From Candidatus Berkelbacteria bacterium (GTDB lineage Bacteria > Patescibacteriota > UBA1384 > JACPKC01), in assembly GCA_016187225.1 (NCBI GenBank), contig JACPKC010000007.1, positions 7,654-71,653 of the forward strand: 64,000 bases of DNA. The letters run 5' to 3'. This document shows, piece after piece, positions 14,058 through 63,364 of this stretch. The stretch's first letter is position 1, and the number at the start of each line of letters is the position of its first letter. The notes beneath the pieces are model-generated. The model worked only from the letters and a program-made list of their open reading frames with translations, ran no database searches and was not told the DNA's origin. The translations under genes and the position numbers were made by a program.

Positions 14058-14063
14058 TAAATC

Positions 14064-15047: not shown

Positions 15048-15053
15048 ATATTT

Positions 15054-15584: not shown

Positions 15585-15643
15585 ATGTTTATATTTTACA
15601 TTATTATTTATAAAATTAAAATGCCGACAATGATAGTATATCC

Positions 15644-15841: not shown

Positions 15842-15932
15842 AATATCCAAAGTTTGATAGTATAGAGTTATGAGGTTATTTGTCCTTTGCTCACAAACTA
15901 ATGATAGCAAACTTTGTGGATTTTTACCAGTA

Positions 15933-16131: not shown

Positions 16132-16243
16132 AAACTTCGCGATTTGAAAGGGTTGCTCCGCGCGGCCGCGCTCCGCAAAATGGTTTGCCGCTTCGCGGCA
16201 AAAAGGCTCACTGGGCAAAAATCAAAGACGGCGGATTTGTTTG
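16125..16243. repeat. Inverted repeat Z flanking the 5' side of the recombinase gene
   Basis: CCGCCAATAGAAACTTCGCGATTTGAAAGGGTTGCTCCGCGCGGCCGCG...GACGGCGGATTTGTT. The reverse complement of 17655-17785 is identical except for an 11-bp insertion (AGGCGGCCGCG) in the right copy. It shares the 7-bp end CCGCCAA with X'. Confidence 0.85.
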
Positions 16244-16262
16244 TTTCGTATCTAAAAACAAT

Positions 16263-17834: not shown

Positions 17835-17869
17835 CAGTGCGTTGCCTTCAGCCACTCGGCCACGTCTCC
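17780..17869 (-). tRNA. tRNA-Ser (anticodon GCT), type II with a long variable arm, CCA encoded
   Basis: Manual fold: acceptor GGAGACG/CGTCTCC, D-arm GCC-GAGTGGCTGAA-GGC, anticodon arm ACGCA-CTGCTAA-TGCGT, variable arm of about 17 nt, T-arm GGAGG-TTCGAAT-CCTCC, discriminator G, then CCA. Confidence 0.85.
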
Positions 17870-22353: not shown

Positions 22354-22508
22354 ACATAAAGTATATCATCAGAGACTACTGGAAAACACACTCCGTACTG
22401 GTTCTGCATAGCACCCTGTCACTGCTGGGTAACGGCCACCTGGTAGCGATATCTGTTTTGCTTTTTGGCCCGGACAGGTATTGCCCGAACCTTTTTTATA
22501 ACAAGAAA

Positions 22509-22532
22509 CTTTCCCACTTTCATCATTACGAG
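22509..22532. repeat. P1 intergenic repeat copy (CTTTCCCACTTTCATCATTACGAG)
   Basis: 23/24 identical to 33108-33131. It lies upstream of the GC-rich secreted-protein gene. Confidence 0.6.
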
Positions 22533-22568
22533 CCGAAGAAATTATCTCCCTCCGAGTCCGAGAATGCT

Positions 22569-23804: not shown

Positions 23805-23856
23805 CGGCGCGACGAGCATGACAATGATCCTATTCGGGATCTAGAGTAATAAAAAA

Positions 23857-23878
23857 AGAGACCTAATTTTAGGTCTCT
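23857..23878 (-). terminator. Rho-independent terminator for the minus-strand gene 23891-24736, lying between convergent genes
   Basis: AGAGACCTAA-TT-TTAGGTCTCT forms a perfect ~9-bp stem. On the minus strand it is followed by TTTTTTT. Confidence 0.6.
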
Positions 23879-23890
23879 CTACGAGGGGCG

Positions 23891-24736
23891 CTAATGCCAA
23901 AAAATGACATCCTCGCCCCAAAAATTCTCGACGAAATCTTTTAAAATGGTCGGCTTTCCGACCTTGCCCTCGCGGAGCGCGCGCAGAGCCTTTGCCTCGA
24001 TCTGGCGCACGCGCTCTTTGCGAATTCCGAGCTCGGTCGCAACCTCGAGATAAGTTCTCGACTGGCTCCCCCGAAGCCCGCGGCTGGCTTGCCAGGGCTC
24101 AAGACCGACCCGCCAAGCAAGCACCTTGTACTCGCGCTCGGTCAAGAGCGCGCGCAGGGCGCTGACCATCGCCTCGCCCCGCCCCGCGACGATTGGAACG
24201 AGAAGTCGCCTATGCTGTTCGACGACGAACTCTCGCTTCTGTTCATGGAATTGGTGCACAGAGGCAGGCAATTCTCCGTCAGTCAACATTTGCTTGATCC
24301 AGGCAAGGTGGATCTGATGGTACTCACCACCATAGCTGGCGGCCGACACGATCCGATAGATCGCGCTAAGCGGATAAGGCAACGCCTTGACAAGCGCCTC
24401 CCACCATAGGTCCATATCCATGCACCAGGTGAAAATGACCACGTCGTGCCGGCATGAATCTAGATCGATATCGATCTCTTTGAAGAGCATATTGGCCAAC
24501 TTGTAATTCCTACTTTGCCCATACTCTGCCTGGAGCCAGGCGCCGAACATTCGTCGCCATCGGTCCTTTTCCGACACTTTGGGCAGTTCCGACACGCCCA
24601 GCTCCTGGCGCACGATCTTGGCGATGGTGACAGGGGACTTGGGCGCCTCAATGTTCCCCTCTTGCATGACGCTCGGTATCTGGGCAATCGGAATGCCCGC
24701 CGTGAAAAGATTCGCCATCATTTTGTGATTTTCCAT
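23891..24736 (-). CDS. Sigma-70 region-4-containing protein (C-terminal HTH only), hypothetical regulator
   Basis: The C-terminal LTEREYKVLAWRVGLE...RTYLEVATELGIRKERVRQIEAKALRALR is a strong sigma70 region-4 match. No recognisable region 2 is present in the N-terminal 200 aa. The gene is GC-rich. Confidence 0.5.
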   Translation of the reverse strand: MENHKMMANLFTAGIPIAQIPSVMQEGNIEAPKSPVTIAKIVRQELGVSELPKVSEKDRWRRMFGAWLQAEYGQSRNYKLANMLFKEIDIDLDSCRHDVVIFTWCMDMDLWWEALVKALPYPLSAIYRIVSAASYGGEYHQIHLAWIKQMLTDGELPASVHQFHEQKREFVVEQHRRLLVPIVAGRGEAMVSALRALLTEREYKVLAWRVGLEPWQASRGLRGSQSRTYLEVATELGIRKERVRQIEAKALRALREGKVGKPTILKDFVENFWGEDVIFWH

Positions 24737-48626: not shown

Positions 48627-49973
48627 ATGTTTAGGTTATTGATTGATCTGCGCTCAATTTGGAGAAACTTGTCCAAAAGCTTTGTCAGAACTATCCAGGC
48701 TTTTGGGTTATTTTTGCTTATGTCCGGCATTTTCTTAAGCCAAATAGCTTTACCGACCCAATTAGTTCAGGCCGAAACTGCTATCAGCGCCGGCAGTATC
48801 GAAGAGGCTCAACGCCTTGCGACACCTCAAGGGTCTGTAGAATTTTCGAAAACGGTCGATGAAAACAAAAAAACGGTTAAAATTACAGTTAATTTTCGAA
48901 AACCCCAAGCGGGCGACGACATTTCAAAAACGCTTGATGTGACATATAACAATATCGTTGTTGCCGCTTATCATTTTTCAAGTTACAAACTCCTCCTGCA
49001 GGAAAAAAGTGGTAATAATCCTCAATTTCTGCGAGAAGGCGGGCTGGGCGAAGGTCAAATAAATGATCAGACAGCAAATGAAAGAAGTATCTCCAGTATT
49101 CATGATCTTAAATTGCCTTCATCTGGTTCGGAGACATATCGCTATAAGGTGAGCGCTACCTATGTGACTACGTCCAAGATAACTCAAGCTGCGCTTAATC
49201 AGATTACTGACCCATTCATCAGAACCGCCATCAACACGCTTCTGGGTAAAATTCCAGAAAAAATTTTCGGGGAATCGAGTGTTTCTGAAGTCACGCTCTA
49301 TTCAGATGGAACAACGAGCTTGAATGACGCAGAAGGCGACACAAAACCAGTTTTGACTGGCACTGCCAGCTTCGAAAATAACAAAAATCGATACGCCGTC
49401 ACGCTTAATTGGACAGTCGACAAACAACCAGATGACTCACCTCCCTACACTCTTTATCGACGCGTTAAAGAATCGACAGACACTGATTTCAGGAATTGGG
49501 CGTCAGTTTCTTCCCCAAGCGAAACCACCGAAACAGATACCGTTAAAGTCAATCCCGACACTTCTAAAACTGTCGAGTATTCAGTCATGGCTAACTATAC
49601 AGATTCAAGTATTCAATCGAGTCAAAAAACCAGTAATAGCGTCTCTTTTGAACTTAGCGCCGATAAAGACGGCAAACCGGTCGATAAGAACGGCAAGTCG
49701 ATAAAAGGACGGATTCCTGGGGCCAAGGGCGAAACGCCAGACATTACCAAACTCGGCAACCAAGCAAATACCACTGGCGAAAAATCGAGCGGTGTCGGTG
49801 GCGACTGCGATAAGGTGATTGAAAAGATTCAATTTGAAGGTATCAGCGGGCAATTTGCGGAATTTCTTGCTAAACCAATGGCGCAGTTTGCATGTTTACT
49901 TGCCGATCAAGTTTATCAAATGATGCTTAAAATGCCTCTCAAGATTGACGCCTGGATACGCACCACAACATGA
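48627..49973 (+). CDS. Secreted/N-anchored hypothetical surface protein (448 aa)
   Basis: Good RBS (GGAGGGG) and an N-terminal anchor helix. A Thr/Ser-rich ectodomain precedes a C-terminal amphipathic segment. The stop overlaps the next start (ATGA). Confidence 0.55.
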   Translation: MFRLLIDLRSIWRNLSKSFVRTIQAFGLFLLMSGIFLSQIALPTQLVQAETAISAGSIEEAQRLATPQGSVEFSKTVDENKKTVKITVNFRKPQAGDDISKTLDVTYNNIVVAAYHFSSYKLLLQEKSGNNPQFLREGGLGEGQINDQTANERSISSIHDLKLPSSGSETYRYKVSATYVTTSKITQAALNQITDPFIRTAINTLLGKIPEKIFGESSVSEVTLYSDGTTSLNDAEGDTKPVLTGTASFENNKNRYAVTLNWTVDKQPDDSPPYTLYRRVKESTDTDFRNWASVSSPSETTETDTVKVNPDTSKTVEYSVMANYTDSSIQSSQKTSNSVSFELSADKDGKPVDKNGKSIKGRIPGAKGETPDITKLGNQANTTGEKSSGVGGDCDKVIEKIQFEGISGQFAEFLAKPMAQFACLLADQVYQMMLKMPLKIDAWIRTTT

Positions 49974-52216
49974 AAAAATTGATCCTCCTCATTTTGGCAA
50001 TCACCGTCCTGACTATTTTAGAACCAAGTCCTGTCTATGCGCTTAATAGTCTTCAAGATCTTATCCGAAAAGAAGATGGCGGCTTGCGTCAGCTCTGGGA
50101 ATTTTCTCGGTCTTTGATCAATTATCTGATGGTGGCGTTCTTAATGATGGTTGCCTTCGCCAACACGCTCCGCATCAACATCGATACCTATGGCGTTAAA
50201 AAGGTTCTGCCTAATCTGATTATCGCCTTTTTGCTGGCTAATTTTAGTTTGTTTTTAGCTCAAATCGTGCTCGATCTCGCTGATTCCTTAACTTGTTCGT
50301 CATATATGATCGCTAGCAAAGAAGCTTGTGGCACGCAAAGCATGAGCCCAGCCGCTTCAGTGATGGTTGATTTTGCCAGAGGAATGGGCGGGGGCTCAAA
50401 AACAGCGGCTGGGATCATTCTTGGCGTTGGTGGGGTAGGAGGACTCGCGGCAGGCGGTCTGGCCGGGGCCTTAATTAGTTTGATTCCGGGAGTGAATTTT
50501 GCCGCCGGCGCCGCCGCTTTGATAGGCGTGGCTCTCGCTTGCGTAATCATATTCTTACTCGCCCTCGTTCCAACTATTTTGATGCTAGTTCTCTGGGCAA
50601 TGTTTATTATCCGTTTTTACTTTCTTCAATTTTTAATTGCCGCCGCGCCCGCCGCCTTTATCCTAATGGCTTTCCCATTCGGAAAAAATATTTTTAATAA
50701 GTGGCTTAATCAATTTCTAACCTGGGCATTTATGAAGCCGATCGCGTTTCTCCTGATGGCGCTCGGGAGTATTATCATCCAGAATCCGCTCGGCGATGCA
50801 ATGGGCTGGGTGGTGAGTTTTTTTGTGGCGGGCGGAGCGATCATCGCCGCAGTGACCGTGCCCTGGAAACTTGGATCAGCGGTCAATAGCATGATAAGCG
50901 GTTTATTGCGTCGGGCTGGCGCCTTTGGCTGGAATAGTACTCGTTTAGGCTTAGCCGGCGTAGGAAGTAAGCTAAAAGATCGCAAAGATTGGGCGGGTAG
51001 GCTTGGTCGAGGTATGAGTGCGACCGCGGGTGTAATGTCGGCTCCAATAGCAATCAAAGAGGTGCTTGACAAAAATCGCCACGATGCCGAACTCGAAGCC
51101 CGAGCCGAAGGCGCGAGCATGATTGGCAACAAAACTTTGCGGCGGCAAGTTGATGACACGCGCATTGCCGAAAAAGCTAAAGAAATTGAAGATAAATCTG
51201 CGCCCGAGCTGGGCGAAATGCTTGGCGAAGCCGCTAAAAGACACGATAAACATCTGGTCCAAGCAATTCTGCAAAAACTCTACAAAGATGGCAATGCAGA
51301 ATTTACTCTCTATGACATGGTTCAGAATAAGATGCTCGATGAAGAAGGCGCCCTGACCGATCTTGCCAAAGAGATTGGTTTGAGCACAGAAGAAATTACG
51401 GATCTTAAAAAGAAGGGCCCAACCGGCAAAGGTTTGAGCAAGCTCACGATGAGCATGCTTGGCGCTCAATTTGAGGATGTTGAGGTAACAGAATATAAGT
51501 TGGACAAGGATGGCAAGTCAACACAAGAAGAAGTTACAAAGACAAAGATTAAGGACAGCGGTGATTTTGTGGCTCGAATGCGTGAACGCCTTGAAGGGAT
51601 TGCGCTTGGCCAAAACCGCACGCATGAATTTGGAACGATTGAACGTGATCCCAAAAAACCCGGCGATCAATTTCTTAGAAGCGATGCCGAGATTGCTAAA
51701 ATAGGCGCAACTATCGGCAAAGATGACCCTCAAGTCATGCTCGCTAAGGCCGAGGGCGACGCGTGGTTGAAACATCGCGGCGAGGAAAAAGGTCTGCAGG
51801 ATACTGTCCTCCAGCGGATCGAGGACGGCAGTATCAACCTTGGCACTTTTGAGCATATCGATCGATTATCTGGCAAGGTGCGCGGTTTGATTAATAGTGA
51901 TCCCAAAGTAGCGGCCGGGGTTCAGAGAGATTTGACTAAAAAATCACAAGAGATGTTGGCGAAATACAATTCTGCTATGAAGACTGGAGACTTTGGAAAA
52001 GCAAAACAACATTATCTGGCTTATGCGACCGCGGAAGTCGCCAAATTAGGCCTGAAATCAGACTACTCGCGCGAAGAAGTGAACGTGGCCCGAAAAAAAT
52101 TTATCGAGAGATCAGATAAAAGATTTGGTTCTTTACTTAAAGAGACGCCTCAATCTCAAGAACCTCCTATACCACTCGGGGGACCCGCAGATCCCAATAA
52201 TATGCCTAACCCATGA
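49970..52216 (+). CDS. Polytopic membrane protein with a Gly-rich loop region and a long charged C-terminal domain; VirB6/TrbL-like (tentative)
   Basis: Signal peptide, at least 6 TM helices with GxxxG-rich segments, and a 400-aa hydrophilic tail. It sits in an operon that ends in PrgI/VirB4-like genes. The family assignment is inferred from topology and context only. Confidence 0.4.
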   Translation: MKKLILLILAITVLTILEPSPVYALNSLQDLIRKEDGGLRQLWEFSRSLINYLMVAFLMMVAFANTLRINIDTYGVKKVLPNLIIAFLLANFSLFLAQIVLDLADSLTCSSYMIASKEACGTQSMSPAASVMVDFARGMGGGSKTAAGIILGVGGVGGLAAGGLAGALISLIPGVNFAAGAAALIGVALACVIIFLLALVPTILMLVLWAMFIIRFYFLQFLIAAAPAAFILMAFPFGKNIFNKWLNQFLTWAFMKPIAFLLMALGSIIIQNPLGDAMGWVVSFFVAGGAIIAAVTVPWKLGSAVNSMISGLLRRAGAFGWNSTRLGLAGVGSKLKDRKDWAGRLGRGMSATAGVMSAPIAIKEVLDKNRHDAELEARAEGASMIGNKTLRRQVDDTRIAEKAKEIEDKSAPELGEMLGEAAKRHDKHLVQAILQKLYKDGNAEFTLYDMVQNKMLDEEGALTDLAKEIGLSTEEITDLKKKGPTGKGLSKLTMSMLGAQFEDVEVTEYKLDKDGKSTQEEVTKTKIKDSGDFVARMRERLEGIALGQNRTHEFGTIERDPKKPGDQFLRSDAEIAKIGATIGKDDPQVMLAKAEGDAWLKHRGEEKGLQDTVLQRIEDGSINLGTFEHIDRLSGKVRGLINSDPKVAAGVQRDLTKKSQEMLAKYNSAMKTGDFGKAKQHYLAYATAEVAKLGLKSDYSREEVNVARKKFIERSDKRFGSLLKETPQSQEPPIPLGGPADPNNMPNP

Positions 52217-53313
52217 CGACCGAACCTCAACCCCAAATCACTATCGCGAATTATCAAAAAACGCTTACCCAAGCAGTCGGGCAACTTCGCGAGTTTTTGA
52301 TTCCGCTCAAACGCGGGGAAATAACCTCGATTCCGCTTGATCCTCTCATCGAGCGAGTCACTAAATTTCACAAACGTTTCCAGGCGCGGCTGACAGCCGA
52401 CACAGCTCTGGGCTTGCCAAAAACAGAGATCGCCGAGCATCTCGTGCAAGAAACGGTCTCGCAAATTCATAATTTAACCGCGGTTCTGGATGAGATCCAG
52501 GCGACTCAACCCAAAACAACATCCGCAATCGACCTCCCGCGCGCGGCGCTTCGTTACAACCAACGCGCGGCCGTGTTAACTCAACTCTTAACTTCGAATC
52601 TCCAGTTGCAAAATACAACCGTTCTCAAAGAAGAACATGCCCGAATCGCCGAAGTCAATGCGGTCAGCGCCGAACATGAAACCTGGGTGCCACTGCAAGC
52701 CTTGAGCCAAAAAGGGAGCGAAGACCTTTTGCGTATTATTACTCGCGCGATCCCGGTTGATCCTTTGATCGACGAGGACATCAGCTCGCTTTTGGGAGTG
52801 TTTCTGCGAGGCGCGCATACGGAAACAGCTATCCAACGCCTCGAGACCGGGCAACAATCACTCCGAGGTGATTCTGTCGCGCTTCGCGCCCTGGCGGACT
52901 CGCAACAATTTCGCGATGTTGTGGCCGCCACTTTCGTGCCTTTGTTTTCACGCCTTTTGAAGCAAGAAAAAATCGAAGCCTATGAGGATGAGTTTCGAAA
53001 CGTCTACTTTACGGTGGTTAAGGAAGTTCAGAAGTATTACCAGTATAAGAAGCAAGCACAACCGCCGGCGCCAACTCTGCAAGTGCAGGCCGATGACCAG
53101 CCCAAGCCGACACCAGCGCCAATACCAAGTCAGACAAAGCTCGTGCCCCCGCAGTCTGCACCGCCGGCGCCGCCGAGTCTTCCAAAAACGCCTCAATCTC
53201 CACCATTCTCAATCGAACCCACGACCGCCGAGGTGGTTGGAATCAAGGTCAACCGCAAGGGCCAAGGCAATACGCCAGGCAAACGACCGATCACACCCAT
53301 CCCAACAGAATAA
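52213..53313 (+). CDS. Hypothetical soluble protein with a Pro-rich C-terminus (366 aa)
   Basis: Translationally coupled to the upstream gene (ATGA overlap). No recognisable domain. Confidence 0.5.
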   Translation: MTTEPQPQITIANYQKTLTQAVGQLREFLIPLKRGEITSIPLDPLIERVTKFHKRFQARLTADTALGLPKTEIAEHLVQETVSQIHNLTAVLDEIQATQPKTTSAIDLPRAALRYNQRAAVLTQLLTSNLQLQNTTVLKEEHARIAEVNAVSAEHETWVPLQALSQKGSEDLLRIITRAIPVDPLIDEDISSLLGVFLRGAHTETAIQRLETGQQSLRGDSVALRALADSQQFRDVVAATFVPLFSRLLKQEKIEAYEDEFRNVYFTVVKEVQKYYQYKKQAQPPAPTLQVQADDQPKPTPAPIPSQTKLVPPQSAPPAPPSLPKTPQSPPFSIEPTTAEVVGIKVNRKGQGNTPGKRPITPIPTE

Positions 53314-53470
53314 CTGCCATACACCTACGAGGTGAAAGGAACGAGGTGTCATTTGGATAGTGATTGCGACCGTTGACAAATCCCTCCTGTTTATGGTATG
53401 AAGTCTCGTTTCGCTTGCGATAAACGGGCGGAACAATTTTTGCCCCAAATGGGGCCGGAGGGATTTAACA

Positions 53471-54982
53471 ATGAGGTTTTTTGTTCTGGTGATTTTGGTT
53501 GCTTTTTTTTCTTTTTTGACGGCGGGCGCGGGCTTTGCCCAGGATCCGATGATCCTCTACCCAAACGCCGGGGCGCGTTTTCAGGTCGATCCTGAAAAGC
53601 CCCTAAAGATGTACTTCATGGGCACCGCGCCGGCTGGCGCCGAGTGGGTACGGGTGAAATGGGACGGGCAAAACTTGCCCGGGCTCGTCGACGTGAAGCC
53701 CGATGGAACCTGGCGAGGTTTCGTCTCGCTCGGCTCGCTTGAAAGGCAAAACGGCGCGTATCTTTCGCGCGACAAGGAATTTGTCGCGCAAGCGCTCGAT
53801 GAAAGTCGAACGCGCCAGATCGGCGATCAACGAACCGTCACGGTTGCGGTTGTGCCGGCGCCGGCGCGCATCGAGGTTGATGACCTCGAACGAGAGATGC
53901 GGATGCGCGCCGAGCGCCAACAAGTACCGGCGTGGATCTGGTGGGGTTTGGGCGCCGTGATGATTGTAATTCTCTGGTACCGCTTTTGGCCGCGGTGCCT
54001 CGTTTACGAGGATCCGACACCGCGGTACGCGGCCGGCCACGAGATTAAACTCAACCGGCCGAGCCATAAGGGGCTGTGTTGGGGAGGTTTCGCGGTTGAT
54101 GAGCGAACTCCATTACCGCCTGGCCTCTCCTTTGTGGATGGCCAACTCGGCAACGCCCCGCCCCGAACCTCGGCGTCCGGCATCCTGGCCGGAACGCCAG
54201 GAGCGCCAGCTCCGCCTGCACCAGGAGCGCCAGCAATGGCGGCCGGCACCTACGACGTGCGCATCATCGGCGGGCTTTTTGCCACCACCGGCCCCTGGAG
54301 CTATCTCGGATGGTGCCGAACAACCGTGACTATCACGGTTGAGGCTCAAACGCGGCGCGTCGTGAAATACAACGACGACATCGCCGTGGTTTGGGAGGCC
54401 GGCAAATGGGCAAGTGTCAAGCCCAAGACCGAGCCCAAGGACATGGAATGGCAGTTCGCCATTGTGACCGTTGTGCCACGGGCGCCCTGGCTCGCCGTTA
54501 ATCCAACGACGGGCGAATTGAGCGGCAGGCCACCCGCCCCACCGGTTCCACCCGTGGCAGGAGCGGCGCCCCCGCCAGACACCTGGCAAGTGGTAGTCTG
54601 GGCCACGAACGTGCGGACTCCGATCGGAGTCGTGCCGATCACGGTCACGATCCACGCCCAAGCGCCGGAGGCCCAGACGCGCCAACCGAGCCTCACCTAC
54701 GAAGTGGTGAGAATGGCTTGTCGGCCTGGCCAACTGGTCTCGCCGAACGCGCCGCGACTCGACCCGCCCGGCACGCTGGCAAATGGATACACCATTCTGC
54801 CAGACCTGCCAGGCGGCATGGTCTGCCGGCCAAGTGATGGGATCATTGCCGGCACACCAGGGGCGGAGCGAGACGGCCAGACCTACACGATCCAGGCGTG
54901 GAACGGCCCGGCCTTCGTCGCCCAGGCCGCCGTTTGGATCGAGGTCAAGGCGCCTGGAGCGCCAGCGGGCGGTGGCAAATGA
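53471..54982 (+). CDS. Secreted protein with a TM anchor and three putative-Ig (He_PIG/dystroglycan-cadherin-like) repeats; GC-rich
   Basis: Signal peptide MRFFVLVILVAFFSFLTAGAGFA. The repeats LPPGLSFVDGQL...GTYDVRIIGG, NPTTGELSGRPPA... and YTILPDLPGGMVCRPSDGIIAGTP...QTYTIQAWNG match the L-P-x-G-L-x(n)-G-x-[LI]-x-G-T-P...G-T-Y pattern of putative Ig domains. Confidence 0.6.
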   Translation: MRFFVLVILVAFFSFLTAGAGFAQDPMILYPNAGARFQVDPEKPLKMYFMGTAPAGAEWVRVKWDGQNLPGLVDVKPDGTWRGFVSLGSLERQNGAYLSRDKEFVAQALDESRTRQIGDQRTVTVAVVPAPARIEVDDLEREMRMRAERQQVPAWIWWGLGAVMIVILWYRFWPRCLVYEDPTPRYAAGHEIKLNRPSHKGLCWGGFAVDERTPLPPGLSFVDGQLGNAPPRTSASGILAGTPGAPAPPAPGAPAMAAGTYDVRIIGGLFATTGPWSYLGWCRTTVTITVEAQTRRVVKYNDDIAVVWEAGKWASVKPKTEPKDMEWQFAIVTVVPRAPWLAVNPTTGELSGRPPAPPVPPVAGAAPPPDTWQVVVWATNVRTPIGVVPITVTIHAQAPEAQTRQPSLTYEVVRMACRPGQLVSPNAPRLDPPGTLANGYTILPDLPGGMVCRPSDGIIAGTPGAERDGQTYTIQAWNGPAFVAQAAVWIEVKAPGAPAGGGK

Positions 54983-55129
54983 GGTAATCGGTCTCCCGGC
55001 GGCGCCGGCGATGGGCCTTAAATACGACGAGTAATGCCCTGGGGTTTGATCCCCAGGGCATTTTTTATCTCAAAGAACTTTCTCACTTACTCGAAAAAAA
55101 TACTTTTTCAACGGTCTCCTCATAGAGAC

Positions 55130-55159
55130 TTGACAAAACAGCCTGACTTGTGATTTAAT
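55130..55159 (+). promoter_or_regulatory. Sigma70-like promoter (TTGACA, 18 bp spacer, TGaTTTAAT extended -10) with a ~200-nt leader
   Basis: -35 TTGACA at 55130-55135, a TG at 55151-55152 and TTTAAT at 55154-55159. The gene start is at 55359. Confidence 0.4.
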
Positions 55160-55358
55160 CTCACGTTTTAACAATTCGGAATCGATGACGACGTAGCCAT
55201 TGTTGGTGAAACGTGAATAGTGAAGCGTTTGATGCTTAATCGCTGACTCTTAACGACTCGCGCTTTACCACCGGATGGGTGCGTCGTCGTCGACAAGAAA
55301 TCCCGGCCGGGTTCGGTCGGCGGCGCGCTCCCAAAAAACCAGAAAGGAGGTGGCTCGC

Positions 55359-56111
55359 ATGTTGCGAACCACCGCATTGATCATCACTATTTTTTTCTTT
55401 TTCTCCTCTGCCTTTCCCGTCTGGGCGGAGACCGAGGTCGAGGCTCTGCAGAGCCTCCTCGGAACCGCCACCGCAACCTGGACGAAGGACCAGGGGTGGC
55501 GGGTTACCTTCCCGAAAGGGAAGCAATACCCGGCGGAGGCGGCTCACGCCGTCGAGGCGCTGTTGAATCGGGGAGAGGGACGGGTTGAGAAAGGAAAAAT
55601 CCGCCTCAACCCGAAGGCCGATATCGGCCAGCTCAAGCTGGCGGACGCCCGGCTGGCGTTCGTCCTGCAGGGGGTCGCTCGCGACCTCCGGCAACAAAAC
55701 CTGGAGATGGCGGGGCGGATGGCGGGCGTGGAGACCCGCGCCGACAACCTCGAGGAGTGGCAGAAAAATGTGGCGCCACTCCTCAAGGGAATCGGCCAGC
55801 CGAGCTGGGTGGCGTGGACCGCGCTCGCGGTTGCCATTCTGGCACTGATCGCGGCGCTTTGGAAGCGCCGCTCAACGGTCGAGCCGGCCGAGGAGCAAGA
55901 GGAGCCGGCTCGATCGCCGACTCGGCAACAACCGGCTCCGCCGGCGCGGCCGACTCCGCCGTCCCAGGGGGGACCCAAGCCAACGCTTCCGGCTCGGCCA
56001 GGACCGGCGCCAGCCATCCCCTCCCCAACGCCCGCCGCGCCCCCGGCTCGGCCGGCGCCTCTGCCGGTTCCTAACACGGAGCCGGAGGAGGAAAACGATT
56101 CGGCCGCTTAA
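55359..56111 (+). CDS. Secreted single-pass membrane protein with a Pro-rich cytoplasmic tail (hypothetical), GC-rich
   Basis: MLRTTALIITIFFFFSSAFPVWA signal peptide, a TM helix WVAWTALAVAILALIAALW, and a C-terminal P/A-rich tail. Confidence 0.55.
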   Translation: MLRTTALIITIFFFFSSAFPVWAETEVEALQSLLGTATATWTKDQGWRVTFPKGKQYPAEAAHAVEALLNRGEGRVEKGKIRLNPKADIGQLKLADARLAFVLQGVARDLRQQNLEMAGRMAGVETRADNLEEWQKNVAPLLKGIGQPSWVAWTALAVAILALIAALWKRRSTVEPAEEQEEPARSPTRQQPAPPARPTPPSQGGPKPTLPARPGPAPAIPSPTPAAPPARPAPLPVPNTEPEEENDSAA

Positions 56112-56130
56112 AAACGGCCGGGGTACCGAA

Positions 56131-56164
56131 GAGAGGTCGTCTCACGACGCCTCTCTTTTTCTTT
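56131..56164 (+). terminator. Rho-independent terminator after the GC-rich gene pair
   Basis: GAGAGGTCGTC-TCAC-GACGCCTCTC followed by TTTTTCTTT. An additional CGGCCG palindrome hairpin spans the stop codon (56101-56120). Confidence 0.55.
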
Positions 56165-56171
56165 GCCCCTT

Positions 56172-56180
56172 TGTTATAAT
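56172..56180 (+). promoter_or_regulatory. Extended -10 promoter (TGtTATAAT) for the downstream operon
   Basis: TGTTATAAT at 56172-56180, RBS AAGGAGGG at 56191-56198 and ATG at 56202. Confidence 0.5.
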
Positions 56181-56201: not shown

Positions 56202-56567
56202 ATGGCAGATCACTTCACCACAAATCCACTTGATCCGGCGGCGTTATTTGAAGAGAATATTTTTGTTCTGCTTGGCTTAAACGATCTACCTGAAGAAAAA
56301 AAGGCGGCTCTGCGCGAACAGATGTTAAGTTCAGTTCGCGACCGCGCTTTGGTTCGCATCTACGATCTCTTGCCCAAAGAAGAACAACAAAAATTCAATG
56401 AGGCACTTGAAAAAGAAGACCAAGAAACCATTCAACAACTTTTGAGTCGCAATAAACTTGACCTGTCTAAATTAATGGTCGAGGAAGCAATTCTTTATAA
56501 ATTGCGCCTAACGCAAGCAAGCGAACAACTTGAGGATGCCGCCCATGCTGAAAAATCAGCCACCTAA
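56202..56567 (+). CDS. Small acidic hypothetical protein (first gene of the operon)
   Basis: ATG with a strong SD. 121 aa, helical and acidic. Confidence 0.55.
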   Translation: MADHFTTNPLDPAALFEENIFVLLGLNDLPEEKKAALREQMLSSVRDRALVRIYDLLPKEEQQKFNEALEKEDQETIQQLLSRNKLDLSKLMVEEAILYKLRLTQASEQLEDAAHAEKSAT

Positions 56568-59500
56568 TAGCGTCAACTCACCGGATTCAGACGAAGAAGG
56601 TTCAAACGAATCTCCTGAAAATGATTCGCGCGACTCGGCTGATGAAGTTATCGAAGAAATCTCGCAAGAGCTTAATAAACGTGAAAAGGAAATTAGTGAT
56701 CTTGTCAAAGAATTTTGTCGATTAGATCGCGAACGCCGGCAAGCGCGTTTTGGCGGCGGCGACCAAGCGGTCGGCAAGTTGTGGAATCCAAAAGAAATCG
56801 CTCGCCGCTGGGGCAACCTGCGCGATTCACTCCACCGCGTGGGCGCGCGCGTTTTTAATGAGAAATCAGGCACATTCGCTTTTGACAAAAACAAGTATGA
56901 GAAACGAGTTTTAGCCGCCCTTGGAGAATCAGCGGCTGGCTTTATAGGCGCTGGCGCAATTTTATTCTCCGGTTTTGGAAGTTATGTGGCGCCCACTCTG
57001 TTTGGGCACTTCTTAAAAGAGGGCATCGACGGCCTGGCAAAAAGCACTCAATTTATACTGGGCAAAAAACAGTGGAACGCCGAGATGGTGACTCAAGTTG
57101 CGTTCGACCTAAAAATCAAAAAATTTCTTGAAAGTGGCAAGGAATATGATGAGGGGCAATTTACTCAAGCCAAAGTCGAACTTATCGATATGGATGCCGA
57201 AATTGCCAGCCTTCAAGCCAAACACCATGCCTCGGATAAAAAATGGACCTTTTGGCGCAAGCTGACTTCAGGCTTTGCAACTGGCGGGGTCGCGTATGGC
57301 GTCACGGGTGTTCCGCTTGGCGTCCACAATTTCGATCCAGGCATTGGTGATGGTTTTACCAATGTAGTCGACAATACGTCGCAACATGGAATAATTGGAT
57401 CCTTGCGCAAATTCCATCGCGTCCTCTGGGGAGCGCAAGGTGGAGAATTTGCGTATGGGCCTGGAGAGTACGAAAGTATAAAAAAAATCGTTGACGATCA
57501 TGGCGGAGTACTCGAAAAAGTAACACACTTTCTAGGAGAGACCCGCCATACACTTGGCCACGGCTTGCCGTCGGGCCTGAAAAACTCGCTTTGGATCGCC
57601 GCTGGATATTTGGGGATTCAAAGTATCTGGGATGGCGCGCAAGGCAGAAATGCGGGCACGCAAACTCGCAAAAGGATTGAAAAAATGATCCACGATGATT
57701 ACGTGTCGTCGGCGCCACCAACTGAAGCGGGGCAAGCGCCAACGCCCGAGCCTCCATTGTCTCTAGGAACGCCAGGCGACGAATCACCGCCTTCGCCTGA
57801 ACCCAAACTACCCTCTGTTCCATCTCCTCAACCACCCGAGGACGCGGTGCAACGAACAAGTAAAGAGGAGAAAAAGATTAAAGACTTTCAATTGGCTTTT
57901 AGTCAACCGTGGATTCTGCGAAAAGATGGTCTACCTCTGGATATTGTAGGCAAAAAAATTAAGGTGATTTTCGGGCGAGGAAATGTCAAGAATGTCAAGA
58001 GTGATATTTCAGCCTTCACGACAGTCCACGACCAAGACACTCGTCGCGGCCGCGTAGTAGTCTATTTGTCTAACGAGATAAAAGAGAAGCTAACAGTCCA
58101 TCTGGATAAACGCGGTGTTAGTGGAGTATTCAATGATGAAACTCGAGTTGCAGACATAGAGCTTTTCGTCGCTGGCATTCGCGAGGATCAAGGGCAGGCG
58201 CAGTTGGAAGTTAGCTTTCAACGTCCCTCAACACCATCAACCCCAACCCAATCGGAACCTCAAGTTTCTATGCCAGCGCCAATCCAGGAACAGGAAACGG
58301 AGATAAGGGAAGGGATTGAGGGGTTGGAGTGGCGAGAGAGGCTGACTTTTGAACAATTTAAGCAAATTCTTGACAACGCGACGGCGCTTTATCGGCACGA
58401 AATTGAAAACGGAAAACCGATTTTTGAGGGCGTAGAAAAGATTGACCAATTGCAACCGGTTGCAGAAATTACCCGCGACGACGCGTTGATTGTTTTCCCT
58501 AAAGATGTGCAAGTCTTCACTCTTGGCGACCTGCACGGCGATACACGCGTCCTGCATTCTTTTCTGAAAAAAACAGACCTTGTCGCAAAAATGCAACGCG
58601 GGGAAAAGGTGGCGCTTCTCGTTCTCGGCGACATGCTGGATCGCGGCGCTCAAAGTTCAGAACTCTTGGCGACCTTGCTCTCGCTCAAGCTTGCATTCCC
58701 AAAACAAGTAGTTCTCCTGCGCGGCGATCACGAGGATGTTGCAATAAATTGTGATTTTGTACAAAATGCTCGGAATTCCTACCACACAAAGACATTTGGT
58801 GCGCATGAGATACTAGGTAACACCGAGACTGAGTGGGAAAAAAAGTTTGGTGCAAAGAATACAGAGATAATTAAAAACACTCACACGCTTCTCTACGGAG
58901 GCCTCCCCTATGCCGCGGTGCTACCAAACGGATTTGTGGCAACCCATGCCGGTGTGCCTTATGAACTGAATAGATTAGAGGCATGGACGACACCCAACGA
59001 AAAACGGCAGACACAATTCATGTGGGGCGATTATACTGATAGAGAATTACTATCGGGTCTTGGTGATGCTGATAACGCTTCAGTATTGACCCGAGAAAAT
59101 CCCGGCCGCGTCTACATGTTTGGCAATCAATTAATCCGGCATTTGAAAGAAAAATTCGGCATTCAGGGTCTGGTCCGCGGCCACGAGCATGACCGACAAC
59201 CATTTCGGAATCAAGATAGCACTGTCTTTACCCTCGTCTCTTCAGGAGAGGTGGTGAGCGACACTAATAGACTCCGCTATGGCTTATTGCAAAGCGATGG
59301 TACGTTCTCCGCATACCCCTTGGAGTTTAAGCCCGAATACCCCAAGGGCGTGTTCCTTGCCGCGACTCAATCTCGGGAGCAAGGTCAGTCAAAACTTATT
59401 GATCGCTACTACGAGCTTGTCAGCACTTTGAAGAATGACTATCTCAATAAAATTGTAACGGTTGAGGTGCGCCGATCAAGGCTTGACGGGTATCTTAATT

Positions 59501-60027
59501 ACCGAATTCCTCAAATTCAAGACTCGCTAAACGATGAAAATATTGTTCTCGAGATGCCTCAAAAAGAACGCAATCGAATGCGCGCGGAGCTTGACCAGAA
59601 AAACAAAAGCGAAGCCCAACTTAAAATTTCTGAAATAAAATTTGTTCTCGGTAAAGATTCCAAGCCAAAGATTAAGATTGAACTCCAAATCCCCGAACAT
59701 GAGCCCGAACCAAGTCCTGAACAACAAAAACCTTTGCTTTCAAATTTCTCTGCTCAAGAGAATGAGATTCTCGATCAGTTGGTCGACCGAGCCAGCGATC
59801 CAGACTCGTACATATTAGTTTTAAGCGAGGCAGAGCTTGAACTTTGCAGAAAACTCGTTCTTCAAATCCCTTGGCAAGTAATCCGCAAGGGCAAGCGAAG
59901 AACTTCCAAAGAGAATGAGGCTTGCGACAAGCTTCAGGTAGCTCTTGAGTCGCCGGAGGGATGTATCCAAAACTCTCAAGAATTTGCCGAGAATATTACT
60001 TGTATGAGGTTGTTCATTGAGGATTAG
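56530..60027 (+). CDS. Giant membrane-associated protein with a C-terminal PPP-family (calcineurin-like) Ser/Thr phosphatase / metallophosphoesterase domain
   Basis: Motifs in order: GDLHGD (GDxHG), GDMLDRG (GDxxDRG), RGDHE (a GNHE variant with N to D), HAG, and RGHEH. Two hydrophobic helices lie in the N-terminal third, with acidic low-complexity regions. 1165 aa. Confidence 0.7.
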   Translation: MRMPPMLKNQPPNSVNSPDSDEEGSNESPENDSRDSADEVIEEISQELNKREKEISDLVKEFCRLDRERRQARFGGGDQAVGKLWNPKEIARRWGNLRDSLHRVGARVFNEKSGTFAFDKNKYEKRVLAALGESAAGFIGAGAILFSGFGSYVAPTLFGHFLKEGIDGLAKSTQFILGKKQWNAEMVTQVAFDLKIKKFLESGKEYDEGQFTQAKVELIDMDAEIASLQAKHHASDKKWTFWRKLTSGFATGGVAYGVTGVPLGVHNFDPGIGDGFTNVVDNTSQHGIIGSLRKFHRVLWGAQGGEFAYGPGEYESIKKIVDDHGGVLEKVTHFLGETRHTLGHGLPSGLKNSLWIAAGYLGIQSIWDGAQGRNAGTQTRKRIEKMIHDDYVSSAPPTEAGQAPTPEPPLSLGTPGDESPPSPEPKLPSVPSPQPPEDAVQRTSKEEKKIKDFQLAFSQPWILRKDGLPLDIVGKKIKVIFGRGNVKNVKSDISAFTTVHDQDTRRGRVVVYLSNEIKEKLTVHLDKRGVSGVFNDETRVADIELFVAGIREDQGQAQLEVSFQRPSTPSTPTQSEPQVSMPAPIQEQETEIREGIEGLEWRERLTFEQFKQILDNATALYRHEIENGKPIFEGVEKIDQLQPVAEITRDDALIVFPKDVQVFTLGDLHGDTRVLHSFLKKTDLVAKMQRGEKVALLVLGDMLDRGAQSSELLATLLSLKLAFPKQVVLLRGDHEDVAINCDFVQNARNSYHTKTFGAHEILGNTETEWEKKFGAKNTEIIKNTHTLLYGGLPYAAVLPNGFVATHAGVPYELNRLEAWTTPNEKRQTQFMWGDYTDRELLSGLGDADNASVLTRENPGRVYMFGNQLIRHLKEKFGIQGLVRGHEHDRQPFRNQDSTVFTLVSSGEVVSDTNRLRYGLLQSDGTFSAYPLEFKPEYPKGVFLAATQSREQGQSKLIDRYYELVSTLKNDYLNKIVTVEVRRSRLDGYLNYRIPQIQDSLNDENIVLEMPQKERNRMRAELDQKNKSEAQLKISEIKFVLGKDSKPKIKIELQIPEHEPEPSPEQQKPLLSNFSAQENEILDQLVDRASDPDSYILVLSEAELELCRKLVLQIPWQVIRKGKRRTSKENEACDKLQVALESPEGCIQNSQEFAENITCMRLFIED

Positions 60028-60225: not shown

Positions 60226-62844
60226 GTGGAACAGCAGGGGTCGCGCAAAGAGACGCTGGCTGAATTGGTTGGTCTGGAAATCCAGTCGCTCAATCAAGCA
60301 CCAACCAAGCCATCCGCCGTAAAGCGGGTTGGGTTAGAGCAGGGTGAGATTGTTTCGCCTCGCTTGAGCGAGACTCGCAATGACAAGAGCGACAAAATTT
60401 TTCGCAATAATAGAGAAAGCGGTGTGCCTCTTTCCGTTGAACACGCCGAGCGATTGGAGCAGGTTCGAGAACAAATTCAAGACCTGAAAACGATCGCCGA
60501 ATGCGCGCGCCAACTGACCGTCCGCTTAAGCGAACTCGCGGCTCAACAAAAGCCCGACTTGCCAGCCGAGGTCGCAAAAATATGGGCAAATGCCAGCAGT
60601 CAAATCGCCAGGTATTTGAATCAGCCGGTCCAGATCGGCGCTGGCGCAACGCCGCACTCGCTCGAGGAAGCGCAAGAACAGTTTGAACACTGGATCAGCT
60701 TGTTTTGCGAAAATGCCGCTGGTCCCGACGGAACTGGCCTTCAAGATGATCCCGACCGTCTCCGAAGCTTCCAGGGAAAACTCGAAAATATCGAACCGCT
60801 TGCAAGCACACTCGCCAAAAACGGGCGCGCGCTCGTGGCGCAGAAAGAACTTACTTTAGAGTATCTCCAAGCAAGCGCCCAGGAAACTTATGCCAAGGCG
60901 CATAAAAATACCGAGCGACTCAAGGCGATCGATCAAGCGGCGCGGCCTCTTCAGGCGCATTGGCTTGAGGCTCTTCAGCAGGAAAAACGCGAACTCGAAC
61001 AGTTGAAGGCTGATCTCAAAAAAATCAGCGGGGAACACCAGCTTTCAGCAACGCTCTTGGCAAAGACAGATGAAGGCATTCAAATTCTCAACCATCTTTC
61101 CACCGAACCGCTCGAACAAGCGCAGATTTCAATTGCCGAATGGGTGGGCAAATTTCGCGAGGCTGAAGATTTTACCGCTGAAAAAGTCCGCGAGCGGATT
61201 CAAACCGACCTCAAAACTCCATTTCAAAAACTTGCCGGACGCATTGAGGAATTGAGGCGCGCGTATGATCCCGACCGCTTAAAAAAAATTTATGAGGCCG
61301 AGCTAAAAAAAGAGCGCGGGGTAGTGATTGAGGAGGCGCAGAATCTTTTAGGCGCGCTTAAAGCCCGAACGAGCGTGCTCACCAACTTGCGGCGCGAAAA
61401 ACTCGGCTCAAAGCCAGACGTGCGGTTCTTTGGCGAAATTGCCAAACAAGTCAACACCGCGATTACCGCTTTGAGCGAGGCCGAGATGAGCTTGCTCGAA
61501 GCGATCAGCGCGCTCAAAGATGCTCCGCTCGTCTCCAAAAACGCCGCGAGTTTTACCGAAAGCCAGGCGAAGGCTAAAAAATTACTCATCCAAACTCAAA
61601 ATTTTGCCGCTCGCAACAAAATTGAGGAACTTTTGGCCACGAGCTGGAAAACCAGCCTGACGCCGCTCAAGGAAGTTCTTGAAACCGCCCGCAAGCGGGA
61701 GATAAGCGCCAAAGCGCTGGCGGATAAGTACAGCCGACATCCTGGCTTCGATACCGCGCTTGCCGCTGACCTGAAAATTAAAACTCAAGCGTTAACCACT
61801 GCTTGCGCCCGAGCAACGGAATTTATCACCGATCACGAAAAGCAGTCAGGCGGGGCCAAGGAGCTGACTGCCCAGCGCGAGCGGCTTATGCAAACAATTC
61901 AAGCGGCGGCGCAAGCGCTTGAACCCTACACCGATGAGACGCGCCTGATGGCCAAGCTTGAAGCCAACAAAGAGCGAACTGAAGAACGACGAGTTGAAGA
62001 GGAACGGCAGGCGCGCGAAGAAGAGGCAAGGCGACGCTCAACACTCTTGCCGCGTCTCGTTACTCTCACGCATGAGGCAAGCCATCTAGCGAGTCAATTT
62101 CGCCGGGCGCTCGGTTATGCCACCCAACTCGAGCAGTACGACAGCTCGCGCGCGCTTGAGTTATACCAAAAGCTCACTGCGCTCGCTGAAACGAATTTCA
62201 ACTCTCAAGTCAGCGCCCTTCCACCGCTTGGCGAGATCATCTCGCAAGGCAAATTTCTCACGGAGCTAAAAACGCGTTTTGAATCTGCTGAACATTCAAC
62301 GAATGAAATTGAAATCGAGATTAGCCAGATCGAAGTCGCCTTGGGTGAAAACGGCCGCGCGAGCGAGCTTTTCCGCGAATTTAATGATTTGGAAAATAGA
62401 TATCCACTGACCGCCTATCGAACGCGCGGTCAATTAAGTCATCTGCTAACCGTCCGAGTTGATCAGTTTGAGCAAAAACTTTTTCGTAGGCGGACGCCAG
62501 AACTCGACATCTTTCGCGAAGAGGTTGTGTGGTTGCGTGAAGAGATAGAGCGTTTTCAAAACGAACCACCGCAAAAAGCGACAGAGCGAGGCGCCAAATT
62601 AGAGGCGCGCCTGAAAGCGCTTGGCGAACGCTTGGCGTCACTCGAAGAACGAACTGAAAATGAGTTTGTTGAGCGCGAGGCTGTCTCAACTCAAGAAAAC
62701 CGCGCTTTGCGGATGAAGCTTCAGGCGCTTTTGCGCGATCAATCGGACTATCAAAGTTATCCAATCAAAATCGACCAGGAAGCGAATCATCCTCAACCCC
62801 AAGTATCTCAAGACGCGAGTGAGACAATTCGGATTCATCGCTAA
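60226..62844 (+). CDS. Giant coiled-coil hypothetical protein (872 aa), GTG start
   Basis: GTG at 60226 preceded by TAGGAGGGAGA. The sequence is almost entirely heptad-like, with E/K/R/Q/L-rich helices and no TM segment. Confidence 0.6.
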   Translation: MEQQGSRKETLAELVGLEIQSLNQAPTKPSAVKRVGLEQGEIVSPRLSETRNDKSDKIFRNNRESGVPLSVEHAERLEQVREQIQDLKTIAECARQLTVRLSELAAQQKPDLPAEVAKIWANASSQIARYLNQPVQIGAGATPHSLEEAQEQFEHWISLFCENAAGPDGTGLQDDPDRLRSFQGKLENIEPLASTLAKNGRALVAQKELTLEYLQASAQETYAKAHKNTERLKAIDQAARPLQAHWLEALQQEKRELEQLKADLKKISGEHQLSATLLAKTDEGIQILNHLSTEPLEQAQISIAEWVGKFREAEDFTAEKVRERIQTDLKTPFQKLAGRIEELRRAYDPDRLKKIYEAELKKERGVVIEEAQNLLGALKARTSVLTNLRREKLGSKPDVRFFGEIAKQVNTAITALSEAEMSLLEAISALKDAPLVSKNAASFTESQAKAKKLLIQTQNFAARNKIEELLATSWKTSLTPLKEVLETARKREISAKALADKYSRHPGFDTALAADLKIKTQALTTACARATEFITDHEKQSGGAKELTAQRERLMQTIQAAAQALEPYTDETRLMAKLEANKERTEERRVEEERQAREEEARRRSTLLPRLVTLTHEASHLASQFRRALGYATQLEQYDSSRALELYQKLTALAETNFNSQVSALPPLGEIISQGKFLTELKTRFESAEHSTNEIEIEISQIEVALGENGRASELFREFNDLENRYPLTAYRTRGQLSHLLTVRVDQFEQKLFRRRTPELDIFREEVVWLREEIERFQNEPPQKATERGAKLEARLKALGERLASLEERTENEFVEREAVSTQENRALRMKLQALLRDQSDYQSYPIKIDQEANHPQPQVSQDASETIRIHR

Positions 62845-62884: not shown

Positions 62885-63364
62885 ATGCGGTATCGCGTTC
62901 CGCAGAATATTGATATGGAGGATCGGATTATTGGGCCGCTGACAATGGCTCAATTTGTCTATCTCATGCTCGGCGGCATGATTATTTATGTTTCCTATCT
63001 GCTTTTCATCCCACCGGTCTTTTTCGCAATCGCTTTTGGAGTCGGCATCTTAACCCTCTCAATGACTTTTCTTAAAATCCAGGACCAGCCTTTCCCAAAA
63101 TTCATCGCGGCGACCCTTTTGTATTTGGTCAAACCCAAACAACGGACTTGGCAAAAAGACCCAACGCTCCAGCACATGAAGGTGATTGAAAAAACCGCAA
63201 CCACGCCTGAACAAAAATCTGTCCCGGGGCAAACCGTGACTAAAATCGAGCTCAATGATCTATCGCAACTTTTAGATACCGGAGGCAGAATAGAGCCGCA
63301 AAAACTTCAAACCCAGCCTGCTCTGGAGGAAAAATCCAAAAAAATCGACACGAGTTGGAAATAA
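62885..63364 (+). CDS. PrgI/VirB3-like small membrane protein of Gram-positive-type type IV secretion systems
   Basis: MRYRVPQNIDMEDRIIGPLTMAQFVYLMLGG followed by two TM helices matches the PrgI-family N-terminal signature. It sits immediately upstream of a VirB4-like ORF, as in prgI-prgJ. Confidence 0.5.
   Translation: MRYRVPQNIDMEDRIIGPLTMAQFVYLMLGGMIIYVSYLLFIPPVFFAIAFGVGILTLSMTFLKIQDQPFPKFIAATLLYLVKPKQRTWQKDPTLQHMKVIEKTATTPEQKSVPGQTVTKIELNDLSQLLDTGGRIEPQKLQTQPALEEKSKKIDTSWK

Follow-up and report, generated by a model that had tools for sequence, protein, structure and literature searches.

Within a 64,000-nt chromosomal segment of a metagenome-assembled genome (MAG) of Candidatus Berkelbacteria (hereafter the window, i.e. 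the whole stretch of DNA that was analysed; NCBI proteins MBI2589848-51, locus tags HYW32_024xx), a cluster of genes for a machine that resembles type IV secretion systems (T4SS) includes a short island of two neighbouring GC-rich genes. Gene 1 encodes a protein with immunoglobulin (Ig)-like repeats of the He_PIG type, and gene 2 encodes a proline-rich protein. Housekeeping functions encoded in the same window include RecA, FtsK, RNase J, PNPase, family A DNA polymerase, PPDK and TsaD, and, further, signal peptidase I and cell-envelope glycosyltransferases. The original prediction, made from the sequence alone, ascribed the island to a recent acquisition from a high-GC donor, with an actinobacterial host of an epibiont as the obvious candidate. 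The island is real; judged by their sequence signature, however, the two genes look like long-term residents of this chromosome, not a recent import from a host, and the pair would then be a modest curiosity.

The GC content of the region 53400-56150 is 62.3%, with 63.5% in gene 1 and 66.9% in gene 2, as compared to 49% in the window. In 1-kb windows at 53-56 kb, the GC content reaches 0.565, 0.659 and 0.599, as against 0.35-0.55 elsewhere, and the top 600-bp window has a value of 0.692 versus a window mean of 0.4915 (standard deviation, sd, 0.048). In 200-bp windows, the values are 0.60-0.75 inside both coding sequences (CDSs) and 0.44-0.52 between them, at 55000-55300; the GC steps line up with the CDS boundaries. 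The 376-bp spacer between the two genes has a GC content of 0.50, and the three spacers of the island, at 0.48-0.50, belong to the upper end of the native intergenic range (mean 0.43). The comparison set consisted of 83 related T4SS loci from candidate phyla radiation (CPR) genomes, of which 80 were anchored on VirB4 (575 related VirB4 loci were detected) and three were found via TrbL_3 homologues; the 600-bp GC excursion over the own mean is +0.20 here and at most +0.123 in all 83 of these.

How much of this excess follows from the proteins themselves? When each protein was re-encoded with the window's own synonymous codon frequencies, the predicted GC content was 0.580 for gene 1 and 0.586 for gene 2, as compared to 0.489±0.029 for the other genes. 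Since the re-encoded values are already that high, ~60% of the GC excess is amino-acid driven, i.e. due to proteins rich in Gly, Ala, Arg, Pro and Trp, and ~40% is a true synonymous excess of GC at third codon positions (GC3). The observed GC3 of 0.70 (gene 1) and 0.77 (gene 2) compares with 0.54 and 0.53 expected from the amino acid sequences with native codon use (binomial z of 7.7 for each gene; 2.6-3.8 between-gene sd), so that, as the original prediction demanded, the anomaly extends to silent sites. The GC1/GC2/GC3 values are 0.66/0.54/0.70 for the 503-aa open reading frame (ORF) of gene 1 and 0.69/0.56/0.76 for a 278-aa version of the gene 2 ORF, against a background of ~0.57/0.40/0.50.

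The GC3 excess is highest in the structured parts of the proteins (+0.26 to +0.38 in residues 21-160 of protein 2, +0.2 to +0.27 in the Ig cores of protein 1) and lowest in the Pro/Ala linkers and tail (+0.04 to +0.14); in parts of gene 2, GC3 is as high as 0.85-0.90. A spread of GC-rich Pro/Ala repeats was rejected as the source of the GC-richness because the linkers hold the smallest GC3 excess. The amino acid composition is likewise shifted in the folded segments, where Gly, Ala, Arg and Pro account for 0.34-0.45 of residues versus 0.266±0.055 in native 100-codon windows (1.4-3.3 sd above), and for 0.39-0.43 in a comparison with 149 homologous Ig-repeat proteins (0.289±0.047). The noted richness in Pro, Ala, Gly, Arg and Trp is confirmed by their joint share of 0.43-0.44 versus the typical 0.28. 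The most frequent codons of the island are GCG (45), CCG (41), GCC (34), GAG (32) and GGC (31), so that the list of dominant codons given earlier (GCC, CCG, CGC, GGC) is roughly right, except for CGC, which is outnumbered among the Arg codons by CGG (28% versus 40%). Avoidance of GGCC was considered as a restriction-related mark of a host and rejected: the ratio of observed to expected by base composition is ~1.0-1.2, and the Markov deficit of GGCC is a codon-juxtaposition effect that is common in CPR loci.

A jump of 15-18 GC points accompanied by raised GC3 resembles fresh foreign DNA. The tetranucleotide check proposed with the original prediction indicates native DNA: in tetranucleotide z-scores (TETRA), the island and the remainder of the window correlate at 0.468, a value near the 53rd percentile for native fragments (0.440±0.099 for native 2.6-kb fragments, calculated with leave-out). 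The 463 fragments from the 83 other CPR loci yielded 0.257±0.111, with 1.9% of them reaching 0.468, and the 190 high-GC fragments, taken from five genomes (Streptomyces, Streptosporangium, Arthrobacter, Ralstonia and Rhizorhabdus), yielded 0.212±0.108 with a maximum of 0.442, none reaching the value of the island. The likelihood ratio of native versus foreign is ~6.5 and 17 for the island and 4.3 for gene 1 alone. The dinucleotide distance of the island is 96, as compared to 57.5±23 for native and 159-179 for foreign DNA. Within each class of third base, strong or weak (S/W), codon choice does not leave the native range (z of -0.38 and -1.24), and C/(C+G) is near native in six of the eight four-fold boxes, those of Arg and Ser being different. 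These tests have power in this window because they flag as foreign two other stretches, 15-17 kb (TETRA correlation of 0.13-0.19) and 21505-22353 (codon z of -3.6).

The island was also compared by TETRA with 13 high-GC references. Streptomyces, Streptosporangium and Arthrobacter correlate with it at 0.20-0.29 (z +0.5 to +1.0 relative to native fragments), and several Proteobacteria and Deinococcus at 0.36-0.45, which is +1.7 to +4.2 z units above native fragments; in each case, the correlation of the island falls into the low tail of the values for the reference's own fragments. The extra likeness to Proteobacteria and Deinococcus is a weak hint of a mixed signature and identifies no donor. 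In particular, a proteobacterial donor, considered because one Ralstonia locus correlates with the island at 0.452 (TETRA), was not adopted: 13 references had been tried, the second Ralstonia locus gave a z of only +1.7, and the position in the low tail holds for every one of them. Judged by GC content alone, the island would thus have been misread and a wrong donor named, because ~60% of the excess comes from amino acid content and the signatures, once normalised for GC, are native; the main value of the case is, at present, methodological.

Table 1. Coordinates of the GC-rich island and of the adjoining T4SS-like genes (nucleotide positions in the window; residue numbers for protein segments; TM, transmembrane helix).
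Feature	Position	Strand	Details and basis
VirB6-like polytopic membrane protein (TrbL_3), 748 aa, left context	49970..52216	+	homologues carry PF19590
g366, 366-aa orphan	52213..53313	+	Pro-rich C-terminus, ordinary codon use; start overlaps TrbL_3 stop
Promoter-like site, gene 1	53373..53402	+	TTGACA 53373-53378, N15, TGgTATGAA 53394-53402; read from sequence
Shine-Dalgarno GGAGGG	53457..53462	+	8 nt before ATG 53471; read from sequence
GC-rich gene 1, 503 aa	53471..54982	+	GC 0.635, GC3 0.70
Protein 1, N-terminal part	residues 1-175		signal-peptide-like N-terminus 1-23; beta-rich domain 24-135; charged helix; TM ~154-175
Protein 1, repeat part	residues 176-499		He_PIG-like Ig domains (three) at 176-296, 297-400 and 401-499; Pro/Ala-rich insertions in loops
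Terminator, gene 1	55033..55068	+	12-bp stem and T-run; terminator scan; -26.6 kcal/mol, z -5.6
Promoter-like site, gene 2	55130..55159	+	TTGACA 55130-55135, N15, TGaTTTAAT 55151-55159; read from sequence
Shine-Dalgarno AAGGAGG	55344..55350	+	8 nt before ATG 55359; read from sequence
GC-rich gene 2, 250 aa	55359..56111	+	GC 0.67, GC3 0.77
Protein 2, N-terminal part	residues 1-148		signal-peptide-like N-terminus 1-23; small alpha/beta domain and long helices 24-148
Protein 2, C-terminal part	residues ~150-250		TM ~150-171, then KRR; Pro-rich acidic-ended tail 175-250
Terminator, gene 2	56128..56164	+	hairpin GAAGAGAGG...CCUCUCUUU and T-run; -28.5 kcal/mol, z -4.3; scan partial
Extended -10 TGtTATAAT	56172..56180	+	22 nt before DUF5663 gene start; read from sequence
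DUF5663 protein	56202-56567	+	Pfam, called genes
1165-aa Metallophos protein	56530-60027	+	Pfam; PHROG NinI-like phosphatase match
872-aa orphan	60226-62844	+	called gene
PrgI/VirB3-like	62885-63364	+	Pfam, 34.6 bits

On sequence grounds, protein 1 is a He_PIG-type Ig-like repeat membrane protein in which two of the repeats are degenerate; the earlier assignment of He_PIG repeats to it is upheld by homology to recognised repeat proteins and by the presence of three units. Against the Pfam model He_PIG (PF05345), which has a gathering score of 24 bits, protein 1 reaches 21.0 bits over its full length and 23.5 with repeat 3 by itself. A phmmer (HMMER) search of 1.84 billion cluster representatives (of ~15 billion proteins) retrieved 1041 matches at E<=1e-3, of which 287 at E<=1e-10. 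All of these run through residues ~175-500 and are domain-level matches to multi-repeat proteins with 28-40% identity (mostly 30-36%). Residues 147-502 align colinearly with the tandem repeats of giant Ig-repeat proteins at 25-29% identity (35% for the top matches). The best single-domain match scores ~36 bits, and the matches come from mixed phyla, the named ones ('putative Ig domain-containing protein', 'Ig domain-containing protein') being from Chitinispirillaceae, Peristeroidobacter and Aurantimicrobium. A profile built from 1750 homologous segments recognises three units in protein 1, strongly only the third, and no He_PIG-like domain elsewhere in the window or in the 83 related loci. The same cluster representatives contain no full-length homologue of protein 1 but itself, a word-indexed search likewise returned only the protein itself, a scan of the metagenome collection of the Joint Genome Institute (JGI) gave no match, and no homologue of the beta-rich N-terminal domain was found in the protein searches.

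Protein 1 shares with He_PIG surface proteins the hallmark motif LPxGL...tGxIsGtP, which is found in its three tandem units of ~100 aa. Unlike these proteins, it has only three repeats, two of them degenerate with Pro/Ala-rich loops, its Pfam score is just below the curated cut-off, its array follows a TM helix and a separate signal-peptide-bearing domain, and it is far richer in Gly, Ala, Arg and Pro than the homologues. In the single-sequence AlphaFold2 (AF2) model of protein 1, the helices agree with the signal peptide and the TM helix. Protein 2 fits its earlier description as a Pro-rich single-pass protein: beyond its signal-peptide-like N-terminus it has one membrane segment, and its tail is Pro-rich. 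Its secondary structure was taken from the AF2 model, and a Foldseek comparison of this low-confidence model with PDB gave a best E of 0.93, which is not meaningful. A word-indexed search found no homologue of protein 2, and the idea that the two proteins are paralogues was rejected, as they have no mutual similarity. For the island proteins, tblastn against 7.3 Gb of plasmids and comparisons with PDB sequences, PHROGs and PADLOC gave nothing useful, and there are no Pfam/NCBIfam matches beyond He_PIG.

The deposited starts appear to be wrong for both genes, the ORFs supported by Shine-Dalgarno sites being those of 503 and 250 aa. Specifically, the start of gene 1 assigned by the NCBI annotation pipeline PGAP (HYW32_02410) is M47, at 53609, which has no Shine-Dalgarno site and removes the signal peptide, and HYW32_02415, the deposited gene 2, starts at 55722 and is called as 130 aa. 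The start of gene 2 is most likely ATG 55359 after AAGGAGG, in place of the position 55275 preferred in the original prediction (278 aa). The exact 250-aa protein 2 is called in a Logan assembly, and exact protein look-up gave a contig match for the 503-aa form of protein 1 and no contig for the form with the PGAP start.

Each of the two genes is preceded by a promoter-like site that combines a perfect TTGACA with a TGn extended -10; at 53373..53402, the occurrence of TTGACAAA was confirmed. As neither site has a perfect -10 hexamer or was called by the consensus scan, the promoters suggested earlier are plausible and unproven. The recurrence of TGn at 56172-56180 suggests a common native promoter type, and this third site would restart the transcription of the downstream T4SS-cluster genes. 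The strong terminator described at the end of the island is there (56128-56158); it is not single, since a second strong terminator is found at 55033-55062. Read in this way, genes 1 and 2 would form two small transcription units between an upstream unit (..TrbL_3-g366) and a downstream unit (DUF5663...VirB4), and the pair would lie at a junction between transcription units, not within one continuous operon. The leader of the 503-aa gene (53365-53480) folds at -42.7 kcal/mol (z -3.4), and AAAUCCCUCC (53378-53387) pairs with the Shine-Dalgarno region 53457-53466 of gene 1; such masking would act only on read-through transcripts from g366, whereas transcripts starting from the promoter-like site at 53373 would be unmasked, because the anti-Shine-Dalgarno arm is absent from them. 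No meaningful direct or inverted repeats flank the island, there is no tRNA near its borders and no integrase, transposase or recombinase among the neighbouring genes, and Rfam has nothing in or near it.

The surrounding cluster comprises a VirB4 ATPase and PrgI/VirB3-like, VirB6-like and TraC-like proteins, i.e. a T4SS-like set of the patescibacterial MPF-FATA type; the TraC-like and VirB4-like (P-loop_TraG/AAA_10) genes lie just beyond PrgI, as read on L001, a locus of this genome. All three homologues found for the 748-aa protein carry PF19590 (TrbL_3), and it has tblastn matches in eight related T4SS loci. In the closest relatives available, which include Berkelbacteria RIFCSPLOWO2_01_FULL_50_28 and have a VirB4 that is 57-65% identical, the order is TrbL_3, one protein of 257-290 aa, PrgI and TraC-like/VirB4, and in one more distant locus PrgI immediately follows TrbL_3. 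Among the 83 loci, PrgI is present in 75 and the TraC-like protein in 80. Here, six lineage-specific genes intervene and make up a block of 9.6-10.7 kb, of which only 2.7 kb is GC-rich; four of the six genes have ordinary composition, and none of the six has a homologue in the 83 loci. Distant relatives (VirB4 45-65% identical), with the VirB6-like gene almost adjoining PrgI, lack the whole six-gene block. No close relative of this genome was found in the collections searched; a genome-collection scan with the VirB6-like protein gave no match, the MAG itself being missed as well. The idea of an insertion into the T4SS-like operon accordingly holds in outline, the insert being the entire block and the GC-rich pair being located at a transcription-unit junction. 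As for the upstream neighbour, g366 has a GC3 of 0.545 versus 0.487 expected and stands where relatives have the 257-290 aa gene after TrbL_3; it was not accepted as an orthologue of that gene, having no similarity to the counterparts in two related loci (L006 and L010). The 1165-aa protein downstream contains a calcineurin-like domain (Metallophos, NinI-like Ser/Thr phosphatase) at residues ~655-890 and Pro-rich segments; it has no homologue in the 83 loci and none in the JGI metagenome scan.

With a confidence that falls a little short of even, we favour the view that the island is an old acquisition from a higher-GC genome, since domesticated, so that its genes are now long-term residents of the Berkelbacteria chromosome. 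On this view, two lineage-specific genes, each transcribed on its own and coding for an envelope protein anchored in the membrane, would have entered long ago from such a genome and then become domesticated: the parts coding for folded domains would retain a composition shifted to Gly, Ala, Arg and Pro along with high GC3, and the parts with fast turnover, namely Pro/Ala linkers, spacers, promoters, Shine-Dalgarno sites and terminators, would have gone native, as would the oligonucleotide and codon dialect. The genes would be part of an accessory block that splits the conserved order of VirB6-like, small protein, PrgI, TraC-like and VirB4. Such a history is akin to that of ameliorated islands in the Lawrence-Ochman model, inasmuch as atypical GC and GC3 are confined to a few adjacent genes in a lineage-specific location and the codon-position pattern fits a higher-GC past; the differences are that this island comes without mobility genes, tRNA or flanking repeats, that its signature and spacers are already native and that its donor is not identifiable. 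Several points speak against this picture of anchored envelope proteins from an old acquisition. Simple neutral amelioration should erode signature and GC3 together, so that it does not easily account for a native-median tetranucleotide signature next to GC3 values of 0.8-0.9 within parts of gene 2, and gene 2 taken by itself lacks the length needed for the signature test (likelihood ratio of 1.7). The island is not alone in combining high GC3 with a native signature: the genes for a tetratricopeptide repeat (TPR) protein and a sigma-70 region-4 protein at 22458-24736 have GC3 of 0.61 and 0.70 (residuals of +0.11 and +0.18), and this segment has a TETRA correlation of 0.547, at the 95th percentile of native fragments; because the two properties are combined there, high GC3 alone is no proof of foreign ancestry. 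No donor homologue was found in protein searches, plasmids or the metagenome scan, and the orphan status of the pair is itself uninformative on origin, because the flanking genes of ordinary GC are equally orphan. The structure models are poor (pLDDT of 39 for protein 1 and 55 for protein 2), and the predicted topology is ambiguous: a cleaved signal peptide followed by one TM helix would leave the He_PIG array on the cytoplasmic side, an unusual location for this domain, and the same arrangement would put the C-terminal region of protein 2 in the cytoplasm.

The explanation that we rank second, and consider unlikely though well worth keeping in mind, is that the genes arose or diverged within this lineage and became GC-rich by selection for envelope proteins rich in Pro, Ala, Gly, Arg and Trp, together with a local GC3 heterogeneity that has no explanation as yet and could stem from recombination-associated GC-biased repair or from gene-specific codon selection. 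It draws on the same native-median signature and native codon dialect, on the TPR and sigma genes, on the three spacers at the upper end of the native range, on the lack of detected mobility scars and donor homologues, and on the neighbouring orphans, which show that the cluster evolves very fast. However, an expansion of GC-rich repeats in situ would give the opposite of the observed pattern, in which GC3 exceeds expectation least in the low-complexity parts that evolve fast and most in the domain cores; the folded domains are more Gly/Ala/Arg/Pro-rich than native proteins, a comparable GC excursion occurs in none of the related loci, from which the He_PIG domain is otherwise absent, and the island is closer to several proteobacterial high-GC references than native fragments are. 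A recent import from a high-GC donor, plausibly an actinobacterial host of an epibiont, would account for the raised GC at all three codon positions, for the extreme GC3 in part of gene 2, for the absence of the genes from all related loci and for their location at a variable spot of the T4SS cluster. Nevertheless, it ranks third and appears improbable to us, with regard to both timing and donor: the signature, codon dialect, spacers and regulatory signals all resemble native DNA, the borders carry neither integrase nor tRNA nor flanking repeats, protein, plasmid and JGI metagenome searches produced no full-length homologue, and the best single-domain matches, being weak and of mixed phyla, point to no particular donor, while the actinobacterial references are no closer to the island than to ordinary native fragments. 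The idea of an actinobacterial host is borrowed from Saccharibacteria, and we know of no host for Berkelbacteria. Finally, an artefact, i.e. a high-GC fragment of another organism joined into the CPR contig during assembly or binning, might be invoked since the source is a MAG and the GC changes are abrupt, but we give this hardly any credence. Three assemblies, which represent at least two sequencing runs, have identical island junctions and encode proteins that are 100% identical (the NCBI MAG and the Logan assemblies for SRR12113424 and SRR12113420); the Logan contig from SRR12113424 is 54 kb long and covers both sides of the island, and that from SRR12113420 (3.6 kb) covers the left junction. 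As identical junctions recur across assemblies, the island is not an assembly chimera; in addition, the GC shifts fall at CDS boundaries, and the native-like spacers hold Shine-Dalgarno sites and terminators.

What might such long-term residents do? From domain content and location only, we infer that the two proteins probably serve the T4SS-like machine as accessory proteins of the envelope or for contact. Protein 1 would insert in the membrane via its N-terminal signal sequence and one TM helix and would carry the beta-rich N-terminal domain and three He_PIG Ig-like domains; protein 2 would have a small ectodomain, coiled helices, one TM helix and the Pro-rich tail. The role of the pair would then resemble that of the surface adhesins encoded in Gram-positive conjugation operons, such as PrgB and PrgC of pCF10 among the MPF-FATA adhesin genes. 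The likeness consists in the presence of envelope-protein genes inside a PrgI/VirB4-type cluster and in cell-cell contact as the proposed role, here by inference; PrgC, furthermore, has a Pro-rich region, as does the island. On the other hand, there is no sequence similarity to PrgB/PrgC, and neither island protein has an LPXTG sorting signal. The T4SSs of Patescibacteria are MPF-FATA-like and usually lack a relaxase, and a survey detected no PrgB-type adhesin in them (PMC12102498). It would be tempting to see in the pair the missing contact or adhesin module of the patescibacterial machine, captured long ago from a non-CPR bacterium of higher GC, possibly of the host lineage, and kept under native control for host attachment. 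We regard this as a long shot; if true, it would provide a concrete candidate for partner recognition by an uncultured Berkelbacteria cell, in a setting where no adhesin is known for the CPR T4SS-like apparatus.

Several other features of the window are worth recording. No part of the window is more clearly foreign than 13099-17869, a probable integrated element with two tRNA-Arg genes and low-GC genes at 14064-15584 (GC 0.33-0.39); it includes, at 16077-17834, a gene for a large serine recombinase (Resolvase, Recombinase and Zn_ribbon_recom domains), the 3' end of which overlaps tRNA-Ser (17780-17869). The gene at 21505-22353 encodes a bestrophin-like membrane protein, has a GC content of 0.38 and retains its foreign codon dialect despite the conditioning on the third base. 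In the T4SS-like cluster, the TraC-like protein and VirB4 are encoded by one ORF of 868-873 aa in the closest relatives (L006 9113-11734; L010 9152-11758) and by two ORFs with an 8-nt overlap in this genome (L001 19900-20616 and 20609 onward), a difference that could reflect a fusion or split event, or a frameshift.

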